Of a stretch of 64,000 nt of DNA, positions 3,695 to 53,346 are shown piece after piece. The notes below the pieces were generated by a model. It was not told the DNA's origin. It did no database searches and worked only from the letters and a program-made list of their open reading frames with translations. Position numbers and translations under genes: made by a program. Location: the NCBI GenBank assembly GCA_963767115.1, contig CAVYCR010000001.1, forward strand, positions 130,430 to 194,429. The letters are read 5' to 3'. The first letter of the stretch is position 1. Every line of letters begins with the position of its first letter. The DNA is from Candidatus Kaiserbacteria bacterium. GTDB lineage: Bacteria; Patescibacteriota; Minisyncoccia; Phycocordibacterales; UBA2100.

Positions 3695-4918
3695 ATGGCA
3701 ACAAGAACTCTTGGATATCTTCTGCTTATCGCGGCGATCATTGTGGTCGCGGGCGTCGTCTATCGCGATTCGCTCAAGAGCGAAGTACCGCTCGTCTATA
3801 CGCCGACCCAGCTTCTCGAAGCGACATGGCTCAACTACAAGACCGAGTATGTGCAAGCCAACACCTATCGCACCGTCGATACAAGCAGCAACAGCATCAC
3901 AACCTCTGAAGGCCAGAGCTATACGATGCTGCGCGCCGTATGGATGGGCGACAAAACGACCTTCGATGGCGCGTGGCAGTGGACACAAGACAACATACAA
4001 CATTCGAGCGACCATCTCTTTGCATGGGAATGGGGCGAGACCGCGACGGGTACCTACGGTGTCCTCACGGCAGATAACGGGCAGAACAGCGCCTCCGATG
4101 CCGACACTGACATCGCGCTCTCGCTCGTCTTCGCCTATGGGCGCTGGCAGGACCCGACGTATCTTAAGGACGCGCGTGCGATCGTGACTGACATCTGGAA
4201 CGACGACGTGATAGAGGCGCAAGGCAAGCCATACATGAGTGCTGACGATCTCGAGAAAAAATCTCCCACCTGGGCTGTCATCGACCCTTCGTATTTCAAT
4301 CCTGCAGCGTATCGCATCTTCGCTCAGGTCGACCCCACTCATCCCTGGGCTGAACTCGTGACGGACTCTGATGCACTTCTTTTACAAAGCATGGGTGCTG
4401 ATCTCGGTTCATCGAAGAGCGACGGCTTGCCGCCGGATTGGTTCGAGATCAACAAAACGACCGGCGCCTTGCAGGCTGTACCGATCACAAGCGACGACAC
4501 CAACTTCGGCTACGACGCGATGCGTGTTCCCTTCAGACTTGCCCTCGATTACGAGTGGTACAAGGACCCTGAAGACCTCACGATCCTCTCCAAGATGTCT
4601 CTCCTGCAGGAAGTGTGGCACCAAAACGGGACGATCCCCTCGATCTCTGCACATGACGGCACTGTCGTTACTGCAAGCGAAGATGCATCGATCTACGGCG
4701 GCACAATCGGCTATTTTATGGTTGCCGACAAAGCCGACGCAGCAGATGTCTACAACCAAAAGTTGCTCTTCCTCTACAACCCCGGCGCCAACGCATGGAA
4801 GCTGCCACTCTCGTATTACGACGACAACTGGGCATGGTTCGGTATCGCGCTCTACAACGGAGAGCTGCCCAACCTTGTCTCACAGCTTCCTGCTTCCGCG
4901 TTCAGCCAATCATCATGA
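3695..4918 (+). CDS. Glycoside hydrolase family 8 endoglucanase (BcsZ-like), N-terminal membrane anchor
   Basis: ASDADTDIALSLVFAYGRW fits the GH8 active-site signature as I recall it (A-[ST]-D-[AG]-D-x2-[IM]-A-x-[SA]...). SEGQSYTMLRAVW lies upstream of it. The N-terminal TM segment is LGYLLLIAAIIVVAGVV. Confidence 0.85.
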   Translation: MATRTLGYLLLIAAIIVVAGVVYRDSLKSEVPLVYTPTQLLEATWLNYKTEYVQANTYRTVDTSSNSITTSEGQSYTMLRAVWMGDKTTFDGAWQWTQDNIQHSSDHLFAWEWGETATGTYGVLTADNGQNSASDADTDIALSLVFAYGRWQDPTYLKDARAIVTDIWNDDVIEAQGKPYMSADDLEKKSPTWAVIDPSYFNPAAYRIFAQVDPTHPWAELVTDSDALLLQSMGADLGSSKSDGLPPDWFEINKTTGALQAVPITSDDTNFGYDAMRVPFRLALDYEWYKDPEDLTILSKMSLLQEVWHQNGTIPSISAHDGTVVTASEDASIYGGTIGYFMVADKADAADVYNQKLLFLYNPGANAWKLPLSYYDDNWAWFGIALYNGELPNLVSQLPASAFSQSS

Positions 4919-4958
4919 TGAAAACGATTTAATACCTCTATAAATCAAAACCAAACGT

Positions 4959-6506
4959 ATGCAGCCCATCAGAAACATCCGTACCGATTTCCTACGCACC
5001 AACACGCCCAAGATCCTCTTCGCGATCAATGCGCTCCTCGCGATCACTTATTTCTGCGTCCTCACCTTTTTCTTCCCGGTAGGCAACCGCGTGCTCTTCG
5101 GGCTTTTGATAGCCGGCGAGGTCTACCATCTCTGGCAGGTCTTGACCTTCCTCTACACCGTGTGGGACACGAGCGACCCTGATGCGCCTGATGCCTCGTT
5201 CACACCGTCGGTTGATGTATTTATAACGGTCGCAGGAGAGCCGGTAGAGCTCGTTGAGCGGACCGCGCGCGCAGCACTTGCAATGGACTACCCCGCTTTC
5301 AATGTCTATCTCCTCAACGACGGCTACGTCGCACACAAAGACAATTGGGAGGAAATAGAAGGTCTGGCCGCACGACTCGGTATCGGTTGCATCACGCGCA
5401 CAACTCCCGGCGGCGCGAAGGCCGGCAACATCAACAACGCGCTTACGCTTACAGGAAGCTCGCTCGTCGCTATCTTCGATGCCGATCACGTACCGCATCG
5501 TGACTTCCTCATCAAGACCGCCGGCTATTTCAAAGACCCCAAGATGGGGTTCGTGCAGACGCCACAATTCTATAGCAACTACGCGCGTAACTATCTCACG
5601 ATGAGCTCGTGGGAGCAGCAAGAGATTTTCTTCGGTCCGATCTGCAAAGGCAAAAACAGACTGAATGCCGCCACCATGTGCGGCACCAACATGCTCATCA
5701 GCCGCGGAGCACTTACGTCTGTCGGCGGCATGAATACGCATTCGATCGCCGAAGATTTTGTGACCGGCCTTTTGATGCACGCGAGCGGCTATCGCTCGAT
5801 CTACGTGCCTACGGTCTTGGCTGAGGGTTTGGCGACCGAAGACTTACTCACCTATTCCAAGCAGCAGTTCCGTTGGGGACGCGGCGCTCTCGACGTCATC
5901 TTCCGTTGGAACCCGCTTCTTATGCGCGGCCTTACGTTCGCGCAGCGGATACAGTATCTCTCGTCAGCGAGCTTCTACCTCTCGGGGCTCTTTGTACTGA
6001 TTGATGCAATGTTGCCCGTCGTATTCTTCTACACTGGGCTCGTGCCTGTGCAGGTCGCCGGCATGTTTCTTGCGAGCATCTTCCTGCCGTACTTCTTCCT
6101 CACGCTCTATATGATCGAATACTCGTCGAATTTCACGTTCACCTTCTCGTCGCTGTGCTTCTCGATGGGCAGTTTCTCCATCCAGCTCAAGGCGCTCGGA
6201 AGTGCCTTGACTGGGACCAATGCAAAGTTTGAAATCACTGAGAAGCGCCGCAATAGTCAGATGGGTCAAACACCACAACGCACCTCGTATCTCTCGATCG
6301 TGAAATGGCACATCGTCTACATCGCACTTGTGATCGCCGGCATTCCGATCGCCTACTTGCGCGGGGGATTCTCTGCATCTCTCATCAACAATTGTGCGTG
6401 GGCATTCCTCAACATTGTGATATTCCTACCCTTCATCCGCGCGGCACTTCCGCAACAAGAAGCGTTTTATCAAGAAGAAGCTTCGCCCGCGCTCGCGACG
6501 CGGTAG
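4959..6506 (+). CDS. Cellulose synthase-like processive beta-glycan synthase (GT2, BcsA-like catalytic subunit, no PilZ domain)
   Basis: Motifs FDADHVP (DxD), SIAEDFVTG (TED-type) and QQFRWGRGAL (QxxRW), flanked by N- and C-terminal TM helices. The C-terminus is short and has no RxxxR/DxSxxG PilZ motif. Confidence 0.8.
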   Translation: MQPIRNIRTDFLRTNTPKILFAINALLAITYFCVLTFFFPVGNRVLFGLLIAGEVYHLWQVLTFLYTVWDTSDPDAPDASFTPSVDVFITVAGEPVELVERTARAALAMDYPAFNVYLLNDGYVAHKDNWEEIEGLAARLGIGCITRTTPGGAKAGNINNALTLTGSSLVAIFDADHVPHRDFLIKTAGYFKDPKMGFVQTPQFYSNYARNYLTMSSWEQQEIFFGPICKGKNRLNAATMCGTNMLISRGALTSVGGMNTHSIAEDFVTGLLMHASGYRSIYVPTVLAEGLATEDLLTYSKQQFRWGRGALDVIFRWNPLLMRGLTFAQRIQYLSSASFYLSGLFVLIDAMLPVVFFYTGLVPVQVAGMFLASIFLPYFFLTLYMIEYSSNFTFTFSSLCFSMGSFSIQLKALGSALTGTNAKFEITEKRRNSQMGQTPQRTSYLSIVKWHIVYIALVIAGIPIAYLRGGFSASLINNCAWAFLNIVIFLPFIRAALPQQEAFYQEEASPALATR

Positions 6507-8871: not shown

Positions 8872-9441
8872 TGATCAGGGGTCTTCGAGTATCCAGTTAA
8901 AAGTGGAAACTTTTACACTGGTAAACACATACCACTTATTACCAAAGAGCTATTCGATCTAGTTCAAATACAGGTCAAAAGCCAGTTCGTAAGATCGGAA
9001 ACAAAGGAGTTTGCCTTCACTAAACTTATGGAGTGCGGCCTTTGTGGATCGGGTATCAGTGCCGATGAGAAGTTTAAGAAACAGAAGAATGGCAACACTC
9101 ATCGTCACGTCTACTACGGATGTACAAAAGTAAGAGACAAAGAATGTAAATGTGGTTACATCAATGAGGTTGATTTGCTCAAGCAATTTGAAGTCCTCAT
9201 GGATAAAATTGATATAGACGAAATTGGTATAAAGGAAAAAATCAAGGAAGAGGTAGAAAGATTCAAGAAATTTCAGCAAGCGCTCCTAGGCAAGAAGGAT
9301 AAAATAACTGTAGGGGATATTGATATCCGAAACTACGCGAAATATCTTCTGCAAGAAGGAAAAGATATTGAAAAAAGAGAATTGTTGGGATGTCTCCGAA
9401 GCGACCTTCAACTCAAAGAAAAGAAGATCTCTTTGGTTTAG
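8872..9441 (+). pseudogene. Large serine recombinase, C-terminal remnant (recombinase + zinc-ribbon + coiled-coil part only)
   Basis: The frame is open from 8872: VFEYPVKSGNFYTGKHIPLITKELFDLVQ...FAFTKLMECGLCGSGISADEKF...HVYYGCTK matches the non-catalytic C-terminal half of large serine recombinases. The N-terminal resolvase catalytic domain is absent, with in-frame stops upstream. Confidence 0.7.
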
Positions 9442-9449
9442 AATTTTAT

Positions 9450-12398
9450 TTATACAGATATTTTTGTGTTCTCTTCCGTGTTATACGTCATATCAAAGAG
9501 AGTATCGGTCATCCATCGACGGAAGTCGGGGTTATCGCTAAATTGTTTGAAAAGTTCTGCATCGTCCTTAAGAACGGCTGCCATCACACGCTTCAAGGCC
9601 TTATCGTGCTCTATACGAGCATTTTGTTTGTCAGAATGTGTCCTCGCATTCTGATAGGCTTTGTCGGCAACTATACGAGCTGGAATCTCCTGTGTTATAA
9701 GACGACCAACTCGATCACGATCTGTCCAGTCAACACCTCCAAATTGATCATTAAAGACCTTGATGATGTTTGAGAGTCGATCAAGTTCTGGCTCTTGCAT
9801 ATGCCCTCCCCCTGATGTTGGTACAGGTTCAATTTCTCCATTTTCGTTTGGGAGTTGTATCTGTCGTGCGGCTCGCTTTTCGACACGATAACTATCCATA
9901 TCGATTGAATCAAGCACTCCTTTTGCAAAATCTGGATCAATCGGTGCCGGAAGTTTCGATACAAGAAAATTTAGGAGTATTGAAAGCTTTTCCCAGTCGG
10001 CATTTGTGTACGGCAAAATTGAAGAAAGGAAGCCATAAGCACGAACGAATGCTTTTGCTTTACCCTTAAAATCCACCTGGCCGTCCTCATCCAGTTGCTC
10101 CAAGTACACAGCAACGCACGCATCTAATATTGGATCGAGCATGTCACGCTCCGCACCCGATAGATACAATTCTACGAGGCGCTCTACTTGCTCGGTTGAA
10201 TAGACATGGTAGTTATCTAGAGCTGCTTTGAGATCGTGGAGTTTGTTCGGATCCGTTTCTCTACTCAAAATAGTGGTGCGGTAATAAGGTGCGAATGACT
10301 TTTCAATTGTATCTACATCATTAAGAAAATCGAGTACGAACGTGTCGTATTTTTTAGGTCGCGCACGATTGAGACGTGAGAGCGTTTGCACCGCTTTGAT
10401 GCCGGAGAGGGGCTTATCGACATACATAGTGTGCAGTAAAGGCTCGTCGTAACCAGTCTGGAATTTGTCCGCACATATCAAGAAGCGATACGGTTCTTCT
10501 TGTATCTTTTCCACAATACCATTGCTGGGAAATCCATTCAGAGATGCCTCTGTAACCTTCGTGCCGCCATACTCGTGTTCGCCAGAAAAAGCCACAATCG
10601 CTTTATAAGGGCTCTTGAGTTCCTTGAGGTATTCATTGAATGCCTGAAAATACTGAATGGCACGCTCGATGCCACTCGTCACTACCATCGCTCGGGCCAC
10701 GCCACCAATCTTTTTTAAGCCGATAACTTGCTCATGAAAGTGGTCGACCATAATCTCGGCCTTAATACGAATCGCGTGGTCGTGGCTCTCAACGTATTTG
10801 CGAAGCTTCTTCTTTGCCCTTTTGGTATCGTATTCTGGATCACTATCGACTGTTTTTATGAGTTTGTAATAACTGTCGACCGGGGTATAGCTCTTGAGCA
10901 CGTCGAGAATAAAACCCTCTTCGATAGCTTGCTTCATGGTGTAGCTGTGGAAAGGACGATGCTTATTCCCTTCGTATGTCTCGCCAAAGATCTCAAGTGT
11001 CTTGTTTTTCGGTGTGGCCGTAAAAGCAAAGTAGCTTGCATTAGGAAGCATTTTCTTCGCTTCCATGATTCGGTTAATCTTATCTTCAAGGGTCTCATCG
11101 TCCTCACCATCCTCTATTTCTGAGAGTGCCATGCTTACGGCCGCGGACGTTCGTCCACCTTGACTTGAATGTGCCTCGTCTATGATCATTGCGAACTTAC
11201 GATTGCGGTGCTCGTTTCCTATCGCATCGAGAATGAATGGAAATTTCTGAACGGTTGAGATAATAATTTTCTTCTCTTCGGCTATGTACTTCTTTAAGTC
11301 ACCGGAGGAGGCCGCATGCCCAACCGTGGCACTGATTTGCCGAAACCCTTTGATAGTCGCCCCGAGCTGACTGTCAAGCGCTTTACGGTCAGTCACTACG
11401 ATAATGGAATCAAAGATATGGCGATCATCTTTAGCGGTACCAATAAGTTGATGCGCAAGCCACGCGATCGAGTTTGACTTACCGCTACCGGCTGAGTGTT
11501 CAATGAGATAACGTTTTCCCGCTCCATGTGTTGCTACATCGGAGAGAAGTTGGCGCACAACTGCAAGTTGATGGTAGCGGGGGAAAATCTGCACGAGCTT
11601 CTTTTTGTGCGTCTTCTCGTCTTTCACTTCCACCATTTGTGCATAGTTCTCGATAATATCGGTGAGACTGTCGCGAGTGAGTGTTTCATCCCATAGATAG
11701 GAGGTTTTGAGACCACTAGGATTCGGAGGATTGCCTGCACCATCATTCCAACCTTTATTGAATGGTAAGAACCAAGAAGCTTTACCTTGCAGGTGTGGAC
11801 AAAATTGCACTTCACTATCGTCGACCGCAAAATGTGCTATACAACGGCCAAGCTGAAAAAGTATTTCCTTTGGGTTACGATCAGTCTTGTATTGTTCAAC
11901 TGCATCTGAAACAGTCTGTTTGGTTAGGCTGTTCTTTAATTCAAAAGTGGCAATCGGAAGTCCGTTTATAAATAGCGCAAGATCTAGCGCGCGTTGCATT
12001 TCATCGAGACTATAGCGAAGTTGGCGCGTAACACTGAATCGATTTTTCTCGTACCGGCCCTTTGCAGTTGTATTGCCAGGGGTTGGGGTACCATAAAAAA
12101 GATCGATGTGATATTGACCATGCTTTACACCATGTCGCAACACGTCCACAACTCCTCGTTTAGCAATCTCACCCTGTAACCGTGTAAGAAATTGTCGTCG
12201 AATGGGACTATCATTGCTAAGGTCGAGTATGTTGAAGAGTTCCTCTTGAGTAGCGTGGATAAAAGCCTGCAATTGTACAGGATCTACCGCAAAAGCCCGA
12301 TCATAGTCATCAGGCTTTCCGAGGTTCCATCCGCCCAATGCTGTTAAATGCTCAATTATTAAGGTTTCGAGGCCTTTTTCGCTTGTATCTGTTTTCAT
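9450..12398 (-). CDS. hsdR: Type I restriction endonuclease subunit R
   Basis: 982 aa. N-terminal nuclease region, DEAD/helicase motifs (IEHSAGSGKSNSIAW Walker A, MIIDEAHSSQGG DEAH box), and operon position downstream of hsdM-hsdS with a 4-nt overlap. Confidence 0.9.
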   Translation of the reverse strand: MKTDTSEKGLETLIIEHLTALGGWNLGKPDDYDRAFAVDPVQLQAFIHATQEELFNILDLSNDSPIRRQFLTRLQGEIAKRGVVDVLRHGVKHGQYHIDLFYGTPTPGNTTAKGRYEKNRFSVTRQLRYSLDEMQRALDLALFINGLPIATFELKNSLTKQTVSDAVEQYKTDRNPKEILFQLGRCIAHFAVDDSEVQFCPHLQGKASWFLPFNKGWNDGAGNPPNPSGLKTSYLWDETLTRDSLTDIIENYAQMVEVKDEKTHKKKLVQIFPRYHQLAVVRQLLSDVATHGAGKRYLIEHSAGSGKSNSIAWLAHQLIGTAKDDRHIFDSIIVVTDRKALDSQLGATIKGFRQISATVGHAASSGDLKKYIAEEKKIIISTVQKFPFILDAIGNEHRNRKFAMIIDEAHSSQGGRTSAAVSMALSEIEDGEDDETLEDKINRIMEAKKMLPNASYFAFTATPKNKTLEIFGETYEGNKHRPFHSYTMKQAIEEGFILDVLKSYTPVDSYYKLIKTVDSDPEYDTKRAKKKLRKYVESHDHAIRIKAEIMVDHFHEQVIGLKKIGGVARAMVVTSGIERAIQYFQAFNEYLKELKSPYKAIVAFSGEHEYGGTKVTEASLNGFPSNGIVEKIQEEPYRFLICADKFQTGYDEPLLHTMYVDKPLSGIKAVQTLSRLNRARPKKYDTFVLDFLNDVDTIEKSFAPYYRTTILSRETDPNKLHDLKAALDNYHVYSTEQVERLVELYLSGAERDMLDPILDACVAVYLEQLDEDGQVDFKGKAKAFVRAYGFLSSILPYTNADWEKLSILLNFLVSKLPAPIDPDFAKGVLDSIDMDSYRVEKRAARQIQLPNENGEIEPVPTSGGGHMQEPELDRLSNIIKVFNDQFGGVDWTDRDRVGRLITQEIPARIVADKAYQNARTHSDKQNARIEHDKALKRVMAAVLKDDAELFKQFSDNPDFRRWMTDTLFDMTYNTEENTKISV

Positions 12399-13801
12399 AT
12401 TGTAATTTTCTCGGCCTCTTTAGAAACGTCATCTGTGGGTTCTTCAGCATCGCTACCATACAACGAGCTATCGCCCTCGTCCATGACTGCGGTAGATTGC
12501 GTCTGCTCTGGCAATTTTGATGCGGCTTCGCGTACATCAAGTTTGCCAGTGACCACATCAGTAACTACGTGAATACGAAACTCATGCAGAAGTTGTATTT
12601 CATTATCAAATAGCTGTAATTGTCTTTCAATTTCCGATAATTCTTGATCTAGCGTCGCGACGATTTTTTCTTGCTCCGGCAATGACGGTATTGGGACTCT
12701 CACATTTTTGAGCCATGGCATATGTATATCGCGCTGTATATCACCAACACCTTTCGACGCGGTGACAAACTGCGATACCATTATTCTCGACTTAAATAGG
12801 TAGTCGGCAAATCTCGGTAACAGAGATGAATCTAAGCCGAGGACCACATAAGCAGGGCTAATGATGCCTAGATATTCAGATACCCCAACAGAGCCACGCC
12901 ATGCTTGTTGATTATTAAGAACAAGATCACCCGGCTTGACTACCTGATAGCCAGACAAATCAAGACTCGGTTTATGAACCTGTCCTCCCCCCTCTCCGTA
13001 ACGAATCACACCCCTACCCAGGAATACCGAGAGAAGATCTAGATCGGTTCGACCTTTTTCCGTTCTAATCCGGGAAATTTCCCATAACCTTGAAATCTTC
13101 CATTCGGAATTTACTTCTTGTTCAGGCGACGATCCGAGGAGTTTCGTCTTTATCTTTGGATCAAGACCGTGAGTAACTACATGACTAACAACATTTTTCT
13201 TTTGTTCCTCTAACAATTTGATTAACTGTTGCTTCGCGTGTATGTATTGTCGGATGCGCCGATCGGCATAGTTGAGAAAACGAATTATTGCGGATTGCTC
13301 ATCATAGGGAGGGAGCGGAACAGGCTGGTTCCCAAAATCTTCAAACCGAAAGTCTGTAGACCTCTCGCGAATACCTTTAGATAAAGCCAGTATCCATTGT
13401 GTACGCGCCATCTCTCGTATAACGTACGCAAAGTATTCTGAAGTGGCCTCCTCAGTTGGCTGACACACTGCGCAAACAGGACTACATTTTCCATTTGAAT
13501 CAGATACACCCACCGCGCCAGCAAAAGCGTCCATCGCATGGATCACAAGATCTCCCTTTAATACCCGCTGATAGCCGATCTCTTGTAGTGCCTCAGTAAA
13601 ACCACGCAGTCGACGATTGCGCCGCAATGTTACGGTGCCATCACGAAAACATGTCACAATCTCATCCCCTGCCTCTACAGGCCTCGAGACTTTGTTAAAA
13701 AGCCATTTAGCTCGTTTGATGCCCCAGTGTTCTGGTATTTCTCCGAGCCACACCACGGCCGAGTCTTTGTATCTTGAATAGGGCTTGAGATCTTTAATCA
13801 T
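12395..13801 (-). CDS. hsdS: Type I restriction-modification specificity subunit S
   Basis: 468 aa with two target-recognition-domain halves separated by conserved coiled-coil spacers (SLPEQEKIVATLDQEL, PPYDEQSAIIRFLN). It lies between hsdM and hsdR. Confidence 0.85.
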   Translation of the reverse strand: MIKDLKPYSRYKDSAVVWLGEIPEHWGIKRAKWLFNKVSRPVEAGDEIVTCFRDGTVTLRRNRRLRGFTEALQEIGYQRVLKGDLVIHAMDAFAGAVGVSDSNGKCSPVCAVCQPTEEATSEYFAYVIREMARTQWILALSKGIRERSTDFRFEDFGNQPVPLPPYDEQSAIIRFLNYADRRIRQYIHAKQQLIKLLEEQKKNVVSHVVTHGLDPKIKTKLLGSSPEQEVNSEWKISRLWEISRIRTEKGRTDLDLLSVFLGRGVIRYGEGGGQVHKPSLDLSGYQVVKPGDLVLNNQQAWRGSVGVSEYLGIISPAYVVLGLDSSLLPRFADYLFKSRIMVSQFVTASKGVGDIQRDIHMPWLKNVRVPIPSLPEQEKIVATLDQELSEIERQLQLFDNEIQLLHEFRIHVVTDVVTGKLDVREAASKLPEQTQSTAVMDEGDSSLYGSDAEEPTDDVSKEAEKITI

Positions 13802-13807
13802 GAAGTG

Positions 13808-15982
13808 CTATCCTTTCGCGATAATTTCATCGAGCAATCCTTCTGTTTCTTTCTCCAATTTAAGGATGTCCCCCTGAATCTCTGTCAGAGGACGTAACGG
13901 TTCCGGTTTGAAGAAATAACGGTTGAAATTGATCTCATATCCAAGTTTGGTCGCACCTTCTGTGGTCCAGGCATCAGGCGCATATGGAAGTACCTCACGC
14001 TTAATAAAATTTTCGATGCCTCCCTTTTCTAACAAAGGCACTTGTTCGTAGTCACGAAGCTCAACATCCGGCTCGTACTCGACGACACTTTTGTTGCTAT
14101 GTATCTCGATTTCAAAAAAACCGTGTAATGGATCGACCTTTGTGAGGGACTTGTGGACTTGTTTGATCACCGGTTCTGCATCCGGATCACGTTCAGCGAG
14201 CACAGTTTGCAAAAACTTAAGACGCTTTGCAGACATCTTAACCTTATTCTCCTTAGCGATACTATCAACTATTTCTAAAAACTTTTGGTAATCCATATGC
14301 GGACCAGTTCCGATTTCCTTCACAACCTTCTCGATGATGGGGACAAGTTGTTCCTCCCCCGCATCTACGCATGCTACGCGAAAACGCTTGAGATGTCCGT
14401 TGCGGAGATCAACCTTTAGTCGTAATGGCCGTTCAATCATGACTTTCCAATAGCCAAATTCCTCATTCGGAAAGATTTTCGATTGTTTGGTCTCCTTGAA
14501 AGAGAGAAAAGTATCCATCACACTCTTTATATTCTCGTCAGTGAGCTCACAGTTCTTTTTGCCCATATTCTTGCGTAACGGTGTAAACCAGCCATTTGTA
14601 TCAATGAGCTGTACTTTGCCCTGGCGTTTGCTTTCTTTACGATTTGAAAGCACCCAAATATAGGTTGCGATACCAGTGTTATAGAACATGTTAAGCGGAA
14701 GTGCCACAATCGCTTCAAGCCAGTCGTTCTCAAGGATCCAGCGACGTATATTACTTTCACCTTGCCCCGCATCACCAGTGAATAGTGAGGAGCCGTTGTG
14801 AACTTCTACAATGCGACTTCCGAGTTTAGTGTCATGCTTCATCTTTGAGAGCATGTTGGCAAGAAAGAGCATCTGCCCATCGCTTGAGCGCGTGACTAAG
14901 GAATACTCCGGATCACCTGCGTGTTCGATGATAAAACGAGGGTCCTTAATGTTCGTTTTCCCACCCATTTTCTCCATATCGCTCTTCCAGCTTTTCCCGT
15001 AAGGGGGGTTCGACAACATGTAGTCAAAACGCATATTAGAGAACGCATCGTTCGTGAGAGTCGAGTATTTGGGACCACCAATGATGTTGTCCGCCTCGTC
15101 GCCGTCACCTTTTAGAAGAAGATCTGCTTTACAGATCGCGTATGTCTCAGCATTGATCTCTTGCCCGTAGAGATGCGTGACTACTTCTTTCTTTCGCTTT
15201 ATTGCGATCTGCTCTAGTGTTTCTTCAGCGACAGTAAGCATGCCGCCGGTCCCTATGGCACCGTCATAGAGAAGATAAGTTCCTGACTCAATTTTATCGG
15301 CGATGGGTCTGAACACCAGCTCAGCCATAAGCTTGACCGCATCACGTGGCGTCCAATGCTCTCCCGCCTCCTCATTGTTTTCTTCGTTGAATATACGCAC
15401 CAATTCCTCGAAGATCGTCCCCATACCGTGGTTGTCGAGGCGCTTGTGCTTGCGTGTACCATCGGGATTAATGACAGCGCGCGGACTGAGATTGATAGAT
15501 GGGTCTAAAAACTTTTCTATGAGCGTACTGAGGACATCAGCATCAGACAAAGTGGATATTTGATTTCGGAATTTAAAGTTGTTTAAAATCTCTTGCACGT
15601 TCGGAGAAAAACCGTCGAGGTACGCCTCAAAATCTTGGCGTAATGCTTGTTGCGTAGTACTTGCGCGTAGATTCTTAAGCGTAAACGGAGAATGATTATA
15701 AAACGCTTGGCCCGCCGCAGATCGCAAAGCATTTTCCTGATTTACTATTCGTGCTTTATCGAGACGCTTTTTTGCATCTATTACGGACTGTTTTGTATCC
15801 TCAAGAACTGCATCAAGGCGACGGATGATGATCATAGGTAAAATTACGTCGCGGTACTTACCGCGCACATAAAGGTCTCGGAGAACATCGTTTGCAATGC
15901 CCCAAATGAAATTTGCTACCCAATGCAGGTCACCGTTTGTCAGAGCTTCATCCTGTTGCGGATTTTCCTTTAAAGAAGACAT
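13808..15982 (-). CDS. hsdM: Type I restriction-modification N6-adenine DNA methyltransferase subunit M
   Basis: HsdM N-terminal domain (FIWGIANDVLRDLYVRGKYRDVILPMIIIRRLD), an AdoMet motif (LYDGAIGTGGML) and the catalytic LSNPPYGKSW (NPPY) motif. Confidence 0.9.
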   Translation of the reverse strand: MSSLKENPQQDEALTNGDLHWVANFIWGIANDVLRDLYVRGKYRDVILPMIIIRRLDAVLEDTKQSVIDAKKRLDKARIVNQENALRSAAGQAFYNHSPFTLKNLRASTTQQALRQDFEAYLDGFSPNVQEILNNFKFRNQISTLSDADVLSTLIEKFLDPSINLSPRAVINPDGTRKHKRLDNHGMGTIFEELVRIFNEENNEEAGEHWTPRDAVKLMAELVFRPIADKIESGTYLLYDGAIGTGGMLTVAEETLEQIAIKRKKEVVTHLYGQEINAETYAICKADLLLKGDGDEADNIIGGPKYSTLTNDAFSNMRFDYMLSNPPYGKSWKSDMEKMGGKTNIKDPRFIIEHAGDPEYSLVTRSSDGQMLFLANMLSKMKHDTKLGSRIVEVHNGSSLFTGDAGQGESNIRRWILENDWLEAIVALPLNMFYNTGIATYIWVLSNRKESKRQGKVQLIDTNGWFTPLRKNMGKKNCELTDENIKSVMDTFLSFKETKQSKIFPNEEFGYWKVMIERPLRLKVDLRNGHLKRFRVACVDAGEEQLVPIIEKVVKEIGTGPHMDYQKFLEIVDSIAKENKVKMSAKRLKFLQTVLAERDPDAEPVIKQVHKSLTKVDPLHGFFEIEIHSNKSVVEYEPDVELRDYEQVPLLEKGGIENFIKREVLPYAPDAWTTEGATKLGYEINFNRYFFKPEPLRPLTEIQGDILKLEKETEGLLDEIIAKG

Positions 15983-16208: not shown

Positions 16209-16417
16209 ATGAGAAAACTTTACTCGTATAATTATATCAAGTATGGAATATGAAATTGGGCGTTATCCCCAATCTTCGTTCTCGAGGGTCTTTAAACACA
16301 AAATCACCCTGTCGGGGTGATTTTGTGTTCTGGTACTGCCCTCAGCAGATGCGCCTTTTCTGAATGGCTCCTGAACTAGTTATCGACGCGACTCGTGCAC
16401 GAGAACCTAGCTCAACT

Positions 16418-18179: not shown

Positions 18180-18281
18180 TCGTGAGCCGACTGGTTTTTG
18201 GGGTCGATGCCTCGCGGCGGCGCGAAATAGAGTTCTTTTTCAGCAGAAAAAGAACGACCCCAAAAGCCAGTCGGCTCACGA
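18180..18281. repeat. Long foldback element A (26-27 bp arms, 48-nt interior with nested hairpin)
   Basis: Arms 18181-18206 cgtgagccgactggtttttggggtcg and 18255-18280 cgaccccaaaagccagtcggctcacg are complementary except for one T/G position. The interior contains gttcttttt-cagcag-aaaaagaac. Confidence 0.8.
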
Positions 18282-19259: not shown

Positions 19260-19430
19260 GGCCGGAACCTCTGGCATCTCTCTTTGCGAACATGCCGCGA
19301 TAGCTTGCGGCACGACCCCTAAAACAAAAAGCGCCTTGCTAGGCGGTTTTTGTTTTCCACTACTCTATGACGTGGGAATGTGACATCTGCTGCGCGAGGT
19401 TCGCAAAGAGAGATGCCAGAGGTTCCGGCC
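19260..19430. repeat. Foldback element B (conserved-core family; 32-bp perfect arms; embedded bidirectional terminator)
   Basis: Arms 19260-19291 and 19399-19430 are perfect reverse complements. The inner 9 nt of each arm (tttgcgaac / gttcgcaaa) and the 107-nt interior are shared, in inverted orientation, with the elements at 27770-27934 and 51626-51794. The interior hairpin aaaacaaaaagcgcc-ttgcta-ggcggtttttgtttt (19321-19357) is terminator-like on both strands. Confidence 0.85.
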
Positions 19431-19443
19431 CTAGATACCATAG

Positions 19444-19470
19444 AAAACGCCGCGTATGATGCGGCGTTTT
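19444..19470. terminator. Bidirectional intrinsic terminator
   Basis: aaaacgccgc-gtatgat-gcggcgtttt: a 10-bp stem including A/T extensions. Confidence 0.6.
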
Positions 19471-20939: not shown

Positions 20940-21059
20940 GGGCCGCCTGGCCTGACAGTTACTTTTTCATTCGAGGACCGAACCCGCAGACCGCGAAGCG
21001 GGCGTGAGGGCGCTATGCGTCCCGCAGAATGAAAAAGTAACTGTCAGGCCAGGCGGCCC
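20940..21059. repeat. Long foldback element C (33-bp perfect arms, 54-nt GC-rich interior)
   Basis: 20940-20972 gggccgcctggcctgacagttactttttcattc is the exact reverse complement of 21027-21059. It lies 28 nt downstream of the cca stop (minus strand). Confidence 0.8.
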
Positions 21060-23017: not shown

Positions 23018-23296
23018 CAGAAATACAATAGTTCTCGGACATGTACGAGAAAACACGGCGAGAAGTAGTTTCATATAAACCTCATATAAAGGTTTTTTAG
23101 GTAAAACTGGGGAAAACTCTGTGGATATGTGGATTACGGACCATTGATACAGTCCCTTTAGTGTCTTTAATGTCGCTATAAACAGGCTGTTAGACTCTAG
23201 AATCGTGAAATATGTTTCATAAGAAACGTATTTCACGTGAAAAGTATTGTAGGTATATTTGAAAAGTGAGTTAGAATATACCTATGAAATCGGGGT

Positions 23297-23692
23297 ATGG
23301 TTATAAATGATAAGGGTCGCAAAGAGACCGGCCGGATAGGGGAATCCATCGCTGCTCAATTCCTTGAGCGGAAGGGTTTTACAATTCTAGACCGGAATTA
23401 CAGAAAACCGTGGGGCGAGATCGATATAATTGCTGAAAAGGGAGGCGTTGTACGTTTTGTAGAGGTCAAAACCATTTCACGTGAAAACATGGAAGACATT
23501 TCACGTGAAATCTCTGAGTACAGACCCGAAGAGCAGGTACATGCTTTTAAGCTTAAGAAAGTCGCTCGTACAGCAGAAACCTACATGATTGCTCACAAAG
23601 ACAATAGGGAATTCCAGATAGATGTGGTTGGGGTTTTACTCAACAAAAAGACTCGACGCGCACGGTGTCGGCTCTTTGAGCAGGTATTATAG
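23297..23692 (+). CDS. YraN-family (UPF0102) predicted endonuclease
   Basis: GRIGESIAAQFLERKGFTILDRNYRKPWGEIDIIAEKGGVVRFVEVKT matches the conserved YraN core (GE.A..YL...G..I...N.R...GEIDLI......VFVEVK). Confidence 0.8.
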   Translation: MVINDKGRKETGRIGESIAAQFLERKGFTILDRNYRKPWGEIDIIAEKGGVVRFVEVKTISRENMEDISREISEYRPEEQVHAFKLKKVARTAETYMIAHKDNREFQIDVVGVLLNKKTRRARCRLFEQVL

Positions 23693-25756: not shown

Positions 25757-25896
25757 ATGTTTTATCGTTATGATGAATAAATGCATTATATCCCTCGACC
25801 AAACCTAAGTACCATTTTGAGCCCTATTTTGATGATGTCAATCAAAAATCATTGTGCTATCCACAGGTAGGAATTGGCTTAACAAAGGCTTGAATA

Positions 25897-26068
25897 TGGC
25901 AATTCGCCACGTCGCAGGGGTTTTGCAAACTGTTCGTACTTGCCCAAGTGACGTACCTAAAAAATTATCAAGGTGAAGCCTTGATAATTTTTTCTACTGC
26001 CAATTTCATAGCCGTCTCTTTTTCGCTGCGCGAGGTTCGCAAAACCCCTGCGACGTGGCGAATTGCCA
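25897..26068. repeat. Foldback element D (variant of the conserved-core family; 34-bp arms, 1 mismatch)
   Basis: Arms 25897-25930 and 26035-26068 are complementary except for one A/C position. It shares the termini ttttgcaaac ... gctgcgcgag-gttcgcaaaa with element B but has a different interior hairpin, aaaaaattatcaagg-tgaag-ccttgataatttttt. Its right arm abuts the rny stop codon at 26069. Confidence 0.8.
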
Positions 26069-27602
26069 CTATCTCGCGTATTCGATCACGCGTGTCTCGC
26101 GGATAACGCTCACTTTGATTTCGCCCGGATATTGCATCTCTTCTTGAATCTTGTCGGCGATGTCACGTGCGATCTTGCGCGCGTCGAGGTCGGTGACGTT
26201 TTCGGGCTTCACAATGACGCGGATCTCGCGACCGGCCGCTATCGCGTAACTCTTGTCGACGCCGGGAACGTTGTTGGCGATCGCTTCGAGTTCTTCGAGG
26301 CGCTTGATGTAGTTCTCGACGCTGTCGCGGCGCGCGCCGGGGCGGCCGCCGGAGATCGCATCGGCGACCTGCACGATCATGCTTTCGGGCGTCTCGTACG
26401 GATATTCCTCATGGTGTGCTTGCATAGCTTTTACGACTCGCTCGTCGACGCCGAACTTCTGCAAGTATACGACGCCCGATCTCGACGTGAGTGCCCGGCA
26501 CTTCGTGGTCGACTGCCTTGCCGATATCGTGAAAGAGCGCGCCGGCGCGTGCGATAGCAGGATCGGCACCAAGCTCCTCGGCAAGCATGCCTGCGAGGTG
26601 TGCGACTTCGACTGAGTGGTCGAGGACGTTTTGGCCGTAGCTCGTACGGAAGTAGAGGCGGCCGAGGATCATGATGAGCTTCGGGTCGAGGTCGGGGACG
26701 CGTGCGGCGTACGCTGCCTCCGCGCCTTTCTTCTTGATGATGGTGTTGATCTCAGCTTCGGCTTTCTGCACGGCCTCTTCAATCTTCGCGGGTTGGATAC
26801 GACCGTCGAGAATGAGATTCTCAAGCGCGATGCGCGCGACCTGGCGGCGTATCGGATCGTATGAGGAGAGGGTAATGGTGCCCGGCGTATCATCGACGAT
26901 GACGTCGACGCCGGTGGAGCGCTCGAATTGGCGGATATTGCGGCCTTCCTTGCCGATGATCTTGCCCTTGATCTCGTCGTTGGGAAGCGTGACGGTCGTT
27001 GCAAGTACATCTGAGACGACGGAATTGCCGAGGCGATGCACGGCGGTCGTGAGGATTTCCTTGGCGCGCTGCTCAAGGCGCTGGTCGCCCGAGATCTCAA
27101 GCTTGCGCATGCGGCTCTCGATGTCGCTCTCGTAGCGGCGTTCGACTGCTTTGATCAGCTCTGACTTCGCGTCATCAGCCGAGAGATTGGCGATGCGCTC
27201 GAGTTGTTCTTGCTGGCCGCGCGCGGCTTCCTCGAGAGCCTGGCGTGCCGCTGAGAGATCCTCGTTCTTGCGGGCGAGGTTTTCCTGTTCGGCATCGAGG
27301 TTGGTCTGGCGATTATCGAGCAATTCTTCCTTGCGGACGAGGCGTTCCTCGACGCTCTTGAGCCCGCGCTCGCGCTCTTTGAATTCGTCGCCGATCTCAC
27401 GGGCTTTTTCTTCGGCACGGGCCTGTGAATCTTCGGTGATCTGCTTTGCCTTTTCTTCGGCGTCAAGCATCATCTTGCGGACTTGCAGCTCCATCGAGCC
27501 GCGTTTGCCGAGACTAATAATATATCGGAGAAAGTAGCCTATTCCGACGCCCGCCAAACCCACAAGGGCGAGAAGAGCGAGCAAAAGTTTGACTGAAATC
27601 AT
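26069..27602 (-). CDS. rny: Ribonuclease Y; reading frame broken once (+1) as sequenced
   Basis: N-terminal TM segment, coiled coil, KH domain (IKGKIIGKEGRNIRQFE) and HD domain (ALFHDIGKAVDHEV) are in ORF 26409..27602. The remainder (QKFGVDERVVKAMQAHHEEYPYETPESMIVQVADAISGGRPGAR...) is in ORF 26069..26584. The junction is near 26458-26466. The span is 1534 nt, i.e. 3n+1. Confidence 0.85.
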
Positions 27603-27769: not shown

Positions 27770-27934
27770 GCCGCCGCTCTGGTTAGGTGTTTGCGAACCT
27801 CGCGCAGCAGATGTCACATCCCCACGTCATATAGTAGTGGAAAACAAAAACCGCCCAGCAGGGCGCTTTCTGTTTTGAGGGTCGGTATCTAAGCTATTGC
27901 GGTATGTTCGCAAACACCTAACCAGAGCGGCGGC
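27770..27934. repeat. Foldback element E (conserved-core family; 29-bp perfect arms)
   Basis: Arms 27770-27798 and 27906-27934 are perfect complements. The 107-nt interior is near-identical to those of elements G and B (B inverted). It ends 5 nt from the clpP stop (minus strand). Confidence 0.85.
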
Positions 27935-50326: not shown

Positions 50327-50438
50327 CTGCCCCGTCCCAACCCCATTATGCCGGCTACGCAGGCCCGGCGGGGCCGAGTCCGAGCGCTGGGCGAGCACGC
50401 CCAGATAGCGACGGCATAATGGGGTCGGGACGGGGCAG
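50327..50438. repeat. Long foldback element F (27-bp arms with one A/C position, 58-nt GC-rich interior)
   Basis: 50327-50353 ctgccccgtcccaaccccattatgccg pairs with 50412-50438 cggcataatggggtcgggacggggcag. It starts 7 nt after the recJ stop. Confidence 0.8.
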
Positions 50439-51617: not shown

Positions 51618-51625
51618 AATGTCGA

Positions 51626-51794
51626 CAGAAACGTAAGCAGTGCGGTGTTTGCGAACCTCGCGCAGTAGATGTCACATCCCCACGTCATACAGTAGTGGAA
51701 AACAAAAACCGCCCAGCAGGGCGCTTTTTGTTTTGAGGGTTTTCACATGACTCATCGCGGTATGTTCGCAAACACCGCACTGCTTACGTTTCTG
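51626..51794. repeat. Foldback element G (conserved-core family; 31-bp perfect arms)
   Basis: Arms 51626-51656 and 51764-51794 are perfect complements. The interior is near-identical to element E. It starts 9 nt after the RNase H stop. Confidence 0.85.
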
Positions 51795-51818
51795 CCGCAT
51801 ATGTTAGAGTAATCACAT

Positions 51819-53309
51819 ATGGGGTCGGGGGTCCTCAAGGCAATTACACTTGGATTTTTGTGCGGCGTCTTTATCCGATCATTTTGCTTGGTTGGATTTT
51901 CTTTTACGCTCTACATGGTCATGCTCGCGCTCGTGGTGCTCGGTTGCGCGCGCTTCGACCCCGCGCGTGCGCGGTCGCTCATCGTGGTAGCGCTCGCGCT
52001 TGCCTCATGCGTGGGCGGGATCATGCGAATGAACGCGGCCGTACTCACCGGCGATCCGCATCTCACTGCAACAATCGGCACGGAGGTGACGCTCATCGGC
52101 GCCGTATCTGCGGAGCCCGATGTGCGCGAGAGTGAGGTGCGCGTCGATCTTGACGCAACGCAGATCGTCGAAGGTTCGACGACGATTCCGATTGATGCCG
52201 GCGTGCTCGCAGAGCTTCCACCTCATGCAGATCTACACTACGGCGATCTCGTGCGAGTCCGTGGCGCACTCGGTCTGCCGCAGTCATTTAGTGTTGGGGG
52301 TGGTGAGCCGTTTGATTATCCCGACTATCTCGCGGTGAGTGGCATTGGTTATGAGCTCTCATTCGCGCAGGGTTCGAGTACCGGTGAGCGCTACGGCAAT
52401 CCGCTTCTTGCCGAAGCGATCGCGATCAAAGAGAAATATGTGGACGCGCTCGAGGCTGTCTTACCCGAGCCGGAAGCCGGACTCGCTGCGGGCATCACGG
52501 TCGGTGACAAGCGCTCGATCGGGCCCGAGCTTTCAAGTGATTTCCAAAAAGTAGGCTTGCTGCAGATAGTCGTGCTTTCTGGATACAATATCACGGTCGT
52601 TGTCGATTTCATCTCATATATCTTCGCTTGGGCGCCACAAAGATTACGCTTCTGCGTAGGTATCATGATCGCTGGCTTCTTCGTTGCGATCTCCGGCGGC
52701 GGCTCGAGCGCACTGCGTGCCGCGATCATGGCGGTGATCGCAATGTATGCTCGTATGAGCGGGCGTTCGTTTGACGCACTGCGTGCGCTTCTGAGCGCCG
52801 CCTTCTTGATGGTACTGGTCGACCCGTTTATCCTCGCATACGATCCCGGCTTCCAGCTCTCTTCGATTGCAATGCTGGGGCTTACGACACTCGCGCCGCT
52901 CTTAGACCCTTACATGCAATGGATTCCCTCACGGCTCGGCCTGCGCGAGATTATCGTATCGACTCTAGCGACGCAGATTGCTGTCACACCACTCATTTTG
53001 CATCAAGACGGCGCACTCTCGATACTTTCGCTTCCTGCCAATATACTCGCAATGCTCCCGGTCCCGCTCGCGATGCTCGCGTCTTTTATCGCGGCCGTCG
53101 CCGCGATGATATACGGAAGAATTGCTACGCCTCCTGCTCTTCCCGCATATGTGCTCCTTCATTACATCGTAATCACGGGCCACTTTTTCGCGTCGCTTCC
53201 GTTTGCATCGGTTCCGCTCGGCACGATAGGGGCAGTACCGATGGCCTTCATGTATTCATTTATCGCAGGCGGTACATGGCTTATCAACAAACAAAAAAGC
53301 CGCGTTTGA
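51819..53309 (+). CDS. comEC: ComEC/Rec2-family DNA internalisation channel protein (no fused MBL domain)
   Basis: N-terminal DUF4131-like OB region plus a polytopic Competence domain (GLAAGITVGDKRSI...LQIVVLSGYNITVV...SGGGSSALRAAIMA). 496 aa. Confidence 0.8.
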   Translation: MGSGVLKAITLGFLCGVFIRSFCLVGFSFTLYMVMLALVVLGCARFDPARARSLIVVALALASCVGGIMRMNAAVLTGDPHLTATIGTEVTLIGAVSAEPDVRESEVRVDLDATQIVEGSTTIPIDAGVLAELPPHADLHYGDLVRVRGALGLPQSFSVGGGEPFDYPDYLAVSGIGYELSFAQGSSTGERYGNPLLAEAIAIKEKYVDALEAVLPEPEAGLAAGITVGDKRSIGPELSSDFQKVGLLQIVVLSGYNITVVVDFISYIFAWAPQRLRFCVGIMIAGFFVAISGGGSSALRAAIMAVIAMYARMSGRSFDALRALLSAAFLMVLVDPFILAYDPGFQLSSIAMLGLTTLAPLLDPYMQWIPSRLGLREIIVSTLATQIAVTPLILHQDGALSILSLPANILAMLPVPLAMLASFIAAVAAMIYGRIATPPALPAYVLLHYIVITGHFFASLPFASVPLGTIGAVPMAFMYSFIAGGTWLINKQKSRV

Positions 53310-53321
53310 AGCGGCTTTTTT
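53293..53321. terminator. Bidirectional intrinsic terminator
   Basis: aaaaaagccgc-gtttgaa-gcggctttttt, overlapping the comEC stop. Confidence 0.75.
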
Positions 53322-53346
53322 GTTTGCGAGAAAGAAATTGCGAAGA

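Follow-up and report, generated by a model that had tools for sequence, protein, structure and literature searches.

What is the long foldback that lies directly downstream of the gene for RNase Y (rny) in a contig of a Candidatus Kaiserbacteria bacterium, and where do its arms come from? The locus was analysed within a stretch of 64,000 nucleotides (contig CAVYCR010000001.1, positions 130,430 to 194,429), here called the window, and all positions without a contig name refer to this stretch. The foldback, termed D, is located at 25897-26068 between rny and hup, the gene for the DNA-binding protein HU. The original prediction, made from the sequence of the window alone, had described D as a variant that shares only its termini with a core family of foldbacks in the same window and combines these conserved ends with an exchangeable terminator cassette. 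The present analysis leads to a partly different answer. D belongs to a small non-coding interspersed repeat, of which it is a diverged copy and which has so far been found only in Kaiserbacteria-like genomes of the candidate phyla radiation (CPR, Patescibacteria). The reading that we hold with middling confidence is that of a repeat resembling a miniature inverted-repeat transposable element (MITE), which carries a bidirectional terminator and whose outer arms arose by inverted copying of flanking DNA at the DNA level; the arm-copying step of this reading is a tentative proposal for which the evidence is thin.

The two arms of D (25897-25930 and 26035-26068) are 34 nt long each, are separated by 104 nt and are complementary at 33 of 34 positions. 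The arm 34-mer is present at only these two sites in the window, with an expectation of zero in shuffled sequences. The right arm ends at 26068 and adjoins the stop codon of rny (26069-26071), with which the C-terminal frame of the gene, ending in ...VIEYAR*, is closed on the minus strand. The sole mismatch is an A-C position within the inner 9-mer (TTTGCAAAC versus GTTCGCAAA), which is to be read with the caution that the window carries frameshifts in rny and hup that are probably assembly errors. In the fold of the minus strand, i.e. the strand of rny, the A-C position becomes a G-U pair and the whole stem is paired (-101.9 kcal/mol, z = -14.2); in the fold of the plus strand (-91.6 kcal/mol) the mismatch position is left unpaired. 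The arm length with its single A-C position, the G-U pair on the rny strand and the contact with the rny stop codon had all been predicted correctly. What had gone unnoticed is the composite nature of the arms, since only the inner 9 bp are family sequence and the outer 25 bp are specific to D.

The outer arm on the hup side (25897-25921, 25 nt; TGGCAATTCGCCACGTCGCAGGGGT on the plus strand, ACCCCTGCGACGTGGCGAATTGCCA in the direction of the genes) pairs perfectly with the outer arm on the rny side (26044-26068, 25 nt), which is its exact reverse complement, and has no other match in the window. The core of D lies between them (25922-26043, 122 nt) and was detected by nhmmer with a profile of six cores at E = 5e-24; it belongs to a D-type subfamily. 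It begins with the left-end inner terminal inverted repeat TTTGCAAAC (25922-25930), one substitution away from the family consensus TTTGCGAAC. An A-tract, a hairpin and a T-tract follow at 25959-25993, an arrangement that resembles a bidirectional intrinsic terminator; the block TTTTCTACTGCC (25990-26001) is placed directly 3' of the hairpin, and the core ends with the 19-nt right-end block GCTGCGCGAGGTTCGCAAA (26025-26043), which includes the inner repeat GTTCGCAAA at 26035-26043.

Altogether six copies of the repeat were found in four genomes. Besides D, the window contains copy A (51623-51797; 25-bp unique arms), which starts 5 nt after the stop codon of the RNase H gene, copy B (19260-19430; 23-bp unique arms), which starts 14 nt after the stop codon of a gene for a XerC/D-like recombinase, and copy C (27770-27934; 20-bp unique arms, 125-nt core), which starts 5 nt after the stop codon of clpP. 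The remaining two copies are located on L135, a Logan contig with an RNase H 82% identical to that of the window, and on L014, which belongs to a Kaiserbacteria metagenome-assembled genome. The shared unit comprises about 92-125 nt and is bounded by a 9-bp inverted repeat, TTTGCGAAC ... GTTCGCAAA, with the GCTGCGCGAGGTTCGCAAA end strongly conserved, and in most copies an A-tract and a T-tract enclose a central hairpin. The exact 9-mer or its reverse complement occurs seven times in the window, always within A-D, where 0.94 occurrences are expected, and the pattern TTTGCRAAC-N(80-110)-GTTCGCAAA retrieves A, B, C and D and nothing else. An exact CTGCGCGAGGTTCGCAAA 18-mer is shared by A, B, C, D and L014, and L135 departs from it by one substitution. 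The core is bounded by TTTGCGAAC ... GCTGCGCGCGGTTCGCAAA in L135 and by TTTGCGAAC ... GCTGCGCGAGGTTCGCAAA in L014. According to the original prediction, the link between D and the family would fail if the similarity of the ends did not recur in other genomic copies; with L135 and L014 it does recur, and the ends and the core profile agree in placing D within the family. The predicted match of the arm-proximal sequences of D to those of element B was likewise found, GCGCGAGGTTCGCAAA being exact in A, B, C and D. As for the suggestion that the ends of about 20 nt are a candidate recognition sequence, the inner 9 bp and about 10 nt on one side are indeed conserved, but the remainder of each long arm is locus-specific: what A, B, C and D have in common is the inner 9-bp part of the arms (TTTGCRAAC / GTTCGCAAA) together with the GCTGCGCGAG beside it.

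The relation of D to the other copies goes beyond its termini. The cores of A, B and C are 87-89% identical among themselves, and that of D is 72% identical to L135, 55-61% to A, B and C and 55% to L014. D can be aligned with L135 over its full length, the right half being better conserved (TTTTTCTACTGCC(A/G)ATTTCATAGC ... GCTGCGCG(A/C)GGTTCGCAAA), and judged by these alignments the L135 copy, in another genome, is the nearest known relative of D. On one side of the hairpin, C(C/T)TAAAA is common to D, L135 and A/B/C; on the other side, TTTTCYACTRC directly after the hairpin position is common to D, L135, L014 and A/B/C, within a block that reads TTTTCTACTGCC in D and L135, TTTTCTACTGCG in L014 and TTTTCCACTACT in A/B/C. 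Between the subfamilies only the stem of the hairpin differs, with TTATCAAGG in D, TACCGAG in L135 and GCGCC in A/B/C, and in each case it is paired and flanked by A/T-tracts. The notions of shared termini only and of an exchangeable cassette therefore do not hold. Because D keeps the shared blocks on both sides of the hairpin as well as the 19-nt right end, a diverged subfamily member appears to be a simpler explanation than a swap of modules.

A census of the family, as the original prediction had proposed, was carried out and yielded the copies in L014 and L135. The scan of one genome per species with the right-end 18-mer gave 36 matches, 35 of which were chance matches, and the scan of JGI metagenome contigs gave 70 matches, of which only L061 and L067, both identical to L014, were real; L014 is thus the single further true locus from the 18-mer scans. 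A two-part pattern of the ends had no match in metagenome contigs, and nhmmer with the six-core profile over 166 kb (window and relatives) found no copies beyond those already known. Scans of viral contigs with a 16-mer, a 20-mer of the D arm and the D-type block returned nothing relevant, and neither D against phages nor B against plasmids gave a match with blastn. In the Rfam search of the window only four tRNAs reached the threshold, and D and B had far sub-threshold matches to generic long-hairpin models. Nothing relevant was found in the literature on MITEs of the CPR or on inverted target duplications. An assembly artefact was considered as a source of these elements and rejected, as like elements are present in independent JGI and Logan assemblies and in an NCBI metagenome-assembled genome.

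The interior of D had been described as containing an A/T-flanked hairpin that resembles a two-way terminator, and this description is upheld by stem and folding energies. The inner hairpin (AAAAAATTATCAAGG / CCTTGATAATTTTTT, 25959-25973 / 25979-25993) consists of 15 perfect pairs with a 5-nt loop, includes tracts of T6 and A6 and folds with -15.7 kcal/mol on the rny strand and -17.3 kcal/mol on the other strand. On both strands the sequence has the form of an intrinsic terminator, namely a G+C-containing hairpin followed by a U-tract. Across the family the hairpins range from -15 to -21 kcal/mol on both strands, and their design is that of the stand-alone bidirectional terminators of the window (e.g. 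53288-53326 and 16295-16329). A simple terminator scan passed over the hairpin of D because the T-tract forms part of the stem. D is located between rny and a promoter-like site of hup (25814-25841, minus strand; TTGACA-16-CAAAAT), 56 nt downstream of D along transcription, and its simplest function would be to end the transcription of rny, as judged from sequence and position. Transcription of rny is predicted to enter D and to end at the internal hairpin and its U-tract, upstream of the hup promoter, and RNA that reads through would form a 34-bp duplex, a candidate substrate of a double-strand-specific RNase. With both the terminator and the stem being symmetrical, the element would act alike in either orientation.

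The repeat is found directly behind stop codons. The six copies start 0, 5, 5, 9, 9 and 14 nt past the upstream stop codon, which corresponds to a combined p of 4.6e-4 (Fisher) against random placement within each intergenic region; the term contributed by D becomes slightly smaller when the corrected start of hup (25756) is used. The conserved right end points towards the upstream gene in A and D and in the opposite direction in B, C, L135 and L014. The four copies of the window lie on one side of dnaA and have mixed orientations.

In order to compare occupied and empty sites, for which the original prediction had also called, relatives with the same gene order were inspected. Four relatives (L129, L130, L131 and L134) share the order ClpP-rny-HU ... 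CCA enzyme-ExoIII-Xer, three others (L128, L132 and L133) have part of it, and none of the seven has a copy of the family at the sites of B, C or D. Copy B is absent from L129, L130 and L134 in spite of the shared gene order. In L128, whose rny is 91% identical, D and five further nt are replaced by about 30 nt of unrelated sequence, and the sequence downstream aligns well. Copy C is missing from L144, whose ClpP is 98% identical; ClpP and rny are separated by 63 nt there and by 194 nt in the window, and both flanks can be aligned. Copy C is also absent from L129, L132 and L133. Since relatives that share the gene order have no element at the sites of B, C and D, the repeat is an insertion/deletion polymorphism.

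Some sites are occupied by different elements in different genomes. The RNase H-ComEC site is occupied in the window by the core-type copy A and in L135 by a D-type copy whose arms are unrelated and whose orientation is opposite. The arms of A and L135 at this site show no significant similarity (p = 0.45), and the flanks downstream are homologous (p = 0.005). At the ClpP-rny site, the window has C, and L134 has an unrelated foldback of 131 nt (4851-4981 of that contig) with 20-bp perfect unique arms; this foldback directly follows the ClpP stop codon. The ends of the L134 foldback look faintly alike to those of the family by eye (AACCTCGC, GCGGT.TG.GTT); it was considered as a distant member, was not detected by the nhmmer profile and is not counted here. 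In L136 (Logan ERR11630394), whose RNase H is identical to that of the window, the contig ends at position 1269 inside element A, just where the two arms start to have 31-mers in common. As this contig illustrates, such foldbacks fragment short-read de Bruijn assemblies at predictable points.

Inverted repeats around an asymmetric segment could also belong to an invertible DNA switch, in which a recombinase flips the core and thereby alters the expression of neighbouring genes. Both orientations of the core are found across loci, the RNase H-ComEC and ClpP-rny sites carry oppositely oriented foldbacks in different genomes, and the gene of the XerC/D-like recombinase adjoins B. We nevertheless consider a switch very unlikely. 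The only functional-looking content of the core is a symmetric terminator, so that flipping would change nothing obvious, and D contains no promoter-like site. The Xer gene, a conserved neighbour with a housekeeping role, is also found at sites without the element. Only one orientation per locus was seen in the assemblies examined, the elements at shared sites differ in their arms and in subfamily, and the contig break in L136 is explained by the inverted repeat itself.

The most unusual property of the family concerns the outer arms. All six copies are set in a further near-perfect inverted repeat of 13-25 bp, the sequence of which is unique to the locus. Among A-D, the outer 20-25 bp of the stems are wholly different between copies, and the matches that they have elsewhere in the window do not exceed 12 nt; the idea that the arms are copies of other window sequence was rejected. 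When the six copies are aligned in register by the 9-mer, 13 of 13 outer pairs scored change on both sides and 94.7% of the cells are paired, with a single G-U cell; the nine inner pairs are invariant apart from the A of D. The arms of A-D contain one mismatch in 93 positions, although the cores of A, B and C differ by 11-13%. Since the pairing is practically of Watson-Crick type only and mismatches are so few in the face of the divergence of the cores, copying of DNA appears to be a better explanation than slow co-evolution of an RNA.

Long stems of this kind are not restricted to the family, which counts in favour of arm copying as a more general process in the lineage. The tRNA-Pro gene of L132 (8975-9046, minus strand; region 8962-9061) is enclosed in a 22-bp helix made up of the acceptor stem and a 15-bp inverted repeat of leader and trailer with one mismatch, a flanking repeat that the corresponding genes of the window, L129 and L134 do not have. 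The density of long inverted repeats, counted with arms of 20 nt or more and pairing of 90% or more, is 8-9 per 100 kb in the window and its relatives, versus 1-2 per 100 kb in unrelated sequences that were fetched by chance. The window also contains long foldbacks outside the family at 20940-21059, 18180-18281 and 50327-50438, which have perfect or near-perfect unique arms of 33, 27 and 27 bp, respectively, around unrelated interiors of 48-58 nt. The last of these starts 6 nt after the stop codon of RecJ; in L137 the spacer between RecJ and the next gene is only 7 nt. On L067, the Kaiserbacteria contig with the L014 family copy, one near-loopless palindrome (CCCATTTAGGACACG-C-CGTGTCCTAAATGGG) is present twice, at 10439-10475 and 11130-11170, about 690 nt apart.

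Covarying stems call to mind a family of structured small RNA genes, whose arms would serve in leader/trailer processing and co-evolve locus by locus, comparable to the stems around rRNAs and the tRNA-Pro of L132. The folds are very stable (z = -12 to -14), all outer pairs covary, and with tRNA-Pro a genuine RNA gene has a similar stem. This explanation is improbable nonetheless. A sense-specific RNA product of the repeat is unlikely, since the copies begin 0-14 nt after stop codons and there is no room for an own promoter between the stop codon and the element. Owing to the two orientations relative to the upstream gene, such an RNA would often be made as antisense, and the central terminator would halt transcription ahead of the 3' arm. 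The near-perfect arms with a single G-U cell, next to cores that diverge by 11-13%, also speak against it, as does the lack of an Rfam family match apart from sub-threshold generic long hairpins. The same 20-25 bp unique duplexes in a conserved scaffold might be regarded as acquired guide- or spacer-like sequences that are expressed as double-stranded RNA against foreign or host targets. With no window match longer than 12 nt elsewhere, no match of a D-arm 20-mer in IMG/VR and a D arm that resembles local native sequence in L133, an origin of this type is extremely improbable.

The resemblance to L133 bears on the origin of the arms. Read in the direction of the genes, the arm of D on the hup side (ACCCCTGCGACGTGGCGA...) agrees at 15 of 17 positions with the native sequence CCCCTGCCCCGTGGCGA of L133, which is located 15 nt after the rny stop codon; 7 of 20000 shuffles were as good, which gives about 0.01 after correction for about 30 comparisons. 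As this counterpart exists only in the orientation of the hup-side arm, the rny-side arm was taken as the copy: the native arm of D would be the one at the less conserved left end and the copied arm the one at the conserved right end, as far as can be judged from the comparison of the sequences. At copy C, the ClpP-side arm, which adjoins the left end, starts with GCCGCCGC, and at the same distance from the stop codon L144 reads GCCGCGC.

The arms might instead be older than the core. A mobile element could have inserted into the centre of palindromes that already existed downstream of genes, the unique arms then being the stems of old hairpins. At the RNase H-ComEC site of L138 (3452-3495), in the place of A after the RNase H stop codon, a loopless perfect palindrome of 44 nt (TTACATAGGTCGGACCTTGGTA|TACCAAGGTCCGACCTATGTAA) is followed by TTTTT, and no core is present. 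Long locus-specific hairpins with other interiors are moreover common in these genomes, and the native hairpin after rny in L133 involves the sequence that matches the arm of D. We regard this order of events as unlikely, as no palindrome of the arms is found at the empty sites of the nearest relatives, namely at the D site in L128, the C site in L144 and the B site in L129 and L134. The arrangement in L133 is inside-out compared to D, with CCCC...GCGAC standing first there and after the core in D, and the arms are devoid of the A/T tracts that native terminators have in this genome. Moreover, the tRNA gene has the same kind of arms, although for this gene no insertion into a palindrome is possible.

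In the MITE-like reading with inverted copying, the arms would be neither carried by the element nor pre-existing. They would arise at the DNA level, one flank being copied in inverted orientation by fold-back or template-switch synthesis that is seeded by the 9-bp repeat. Several observations weigh against this reading or narrow its basis. The case for a native arm consists of one significant match, that of D to L133; the corresponding comparisons of the C arm with L144 (p = 0.08-0.10) and of the B arm with L129 (p = 0.07) were not significant, and L128, the closest relative at the site of D, shows no clear homologue of the D arm. The outer ATTCGCC of the rny-side arm of D, i.e. the presumed copy, is also found after the stop codon in L133, and the state of L133 could equally derive from a D-like state by deletion. 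No direct target-site duplication was found, the flanks of the 9-bp repeat being inverted copies, with no direct repeat outside the arms. Only six copies from four genomes are known, and among the annotated open reading frames of the window there is no transposase or other mobilising gene. Copy B is located just upstream of a native terminator (19443-19470), and therefore at least this copy is not needed for termination.

A more far-reaching version of the proposal is that each new copy makes its own stem, 13-25 nt of target DNA being copied in inverted orientation beside the conserved right end, for example with the paired 9-bp ends acting as a fold-back primer. Upon insertion the target site would thereby be duplicated in inverted orientation, in place of the direct duplication that known transposases leave, and the process would also act on other hairpin seeds of Kaiserbacteria, including the tRNA gene. 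This version is possible, though on balance we rather doubt it.

How does the repeat compare with known systems? Like MITEs, it is short (below about 300 bp) and non-coding, the cores measuring 92-125 nt and whole foldbacks 118-175 nt with no conserved reading frame. It has kept terminal repeats (9 bp, TTTGCGAAC / GTTCGCAAA, with one substitution in D), which are short for a MITE, and four dispersed copies are present in 64 kb at sites that are polymorphic between relatives. Unlike MITEs, it has no direct target-site duplication. With regard to a parent element, the window contains no transposase, and the 18-mer scans of the sequence collections gave one further small copy only. The closest functional analogues are SPRITE, Correia and ERIC (PMC3049150, PMC2649163, PMC2229807, PMC10969869). 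The Correia elements (CREE) of Neisseria and the ERIC elements of enterobacteria are MITE-like and co-transcribed with their neighbours, and their inverted ends fold into long RNA hairpins that can be bound and cut by RNase III, which affects the flanking genes (PMC2649163; PMC2229807). The present repeat is similar to both in being MITE-like and in having inverted ends that are predicted to form long RNA hairpins. In CREE, however, the conserved terminal repeats of 26 bp are the same in every copy and a TA duplication is formed, whereas here 9 bp are conserved, 13-25 bp are locus-specific and no direct duplication is seen; on account of its different ends, the missing TA duplication and a CPR host instead of Neisseria, the repeat is not a CREE. 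SPRITE, a terminator-like repeat of pneumococci, is likewise short, non-coding and intergenic, has no gene of its own and resembles an intrinsic terminator. It belongs to another phylum, has no sequence similarity to the present repeat, and its copies are not each enclosed in a long locus-unique stem. To our knowledge, no preference for adjacency to stop codons has been reported for SPRITE.

Elements flanked by two halves of a hairpin are known from IS1397 and ISKpn1, which insert into the loops of palindromic units; these are full insertion sequences with a transposase, and their targets are a conserved repeat family. Here, in contrast, the halves are unique and the empty sites are without them. 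The repeat also differs from REP/REPIN sequences in that its long palindromic part is not conserved, and no RAYT-like gene is present among the annotated open reading frames of the window. The features for which we know of no precedent are the locus-specific perfect arms and the adjacency to stop codons. A possible biochemical parallel to the copying step is template switching at imperfect inverted repeats, in which the nascent strand copies the opposite arm, perfects the repeat and yields short inverted copies (PMC7202029; PMC9435742). Such quasipalindrome events usually occur at isolated hotspots and involve from a few bases up to about 20 nt, unlike the arms of 13-25 bp at every copy of the repeat and the similar arms at a tRNA gene and at other hairpins.

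The genes around D were inspected as well. The rny gene extends over 26069-27602 on the minus strand and contains a 1-nt frameshift near 26463: tblastn of the protein P0002 returned two pieces in frames -3 and -1 that are joined at 26463/26464, and the 131 C-terminal amino acids after the frameshift are 97% identical to P0002. The hup gene (minus strand, start codon 25754-25756) has a single-base frameshift at about 25645, and its downstream part is still conserved. Because the parts downstream of both frameshifts stay highly conserved, the frameshifts are probably assembly errors rather than signs of pseudogenes, and several other overlapping pairs of open reading frames suggest further assembly errors in the window. 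The TTGACA and CAAAAT hexamers of the promoter-like site of hup are kept in the relatives L128, L133 and L134 and are also present in L129. About 20 nt upstream of the -35 hexamer, the motif CTGTGGATAG (25862-25871, minus strand) is kept in five of five relatives compared; in L129 it has the form TGTGGATAG, and the surrounding intergenic DNA has diverged. The motif may be a candidate binding site of a regulator.

Named homologues of the RNase Y, RNase H and ClpP of the window belong to Candidatus Kaiserbacteria or Paceibacterota, which assigns the window to a CPR bacterium of this group. Elsewhere in the window, an operon of a type I restriction-modification system (hsdR, hsdS, hsdM) at 9450-15982 has a G+C content of about 45%, versus 52-58% elsewhere, and was probably acquired horizontally. 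A 12-nt palindrome, TTTCACGTGAAA, was found three times (23231-23242, 23475-23486 and 23499-23510) with 0.03 occurrences expected; these copies are located upstream of and inside a gene of the UPF0102 family (23297-23692), and in L134 similar palindromes are present at 10565-10836 within and just downstream of the same gene.

Small repeats that carry a terminator are already known, and D as such is ordinary. What is unusual is that every copy of the repeat is set in a near-perfect, locus-unique stem near a stop codon, and that unrelated hairpins and a tRNA gene of the lineage are alike in this respect. If the inverted copying is true, it would represent either a new outcome of transposition or a growth of palindromes by template switching that acts as a major shaper of the intergenic DNA of the CPR; a link of such palindrome growth to the reduced sets of repair genes in the CPR is speculation. 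The repeat also has a bearing on how transcription is ended in the very short intergenic spaces of tiny genomes.

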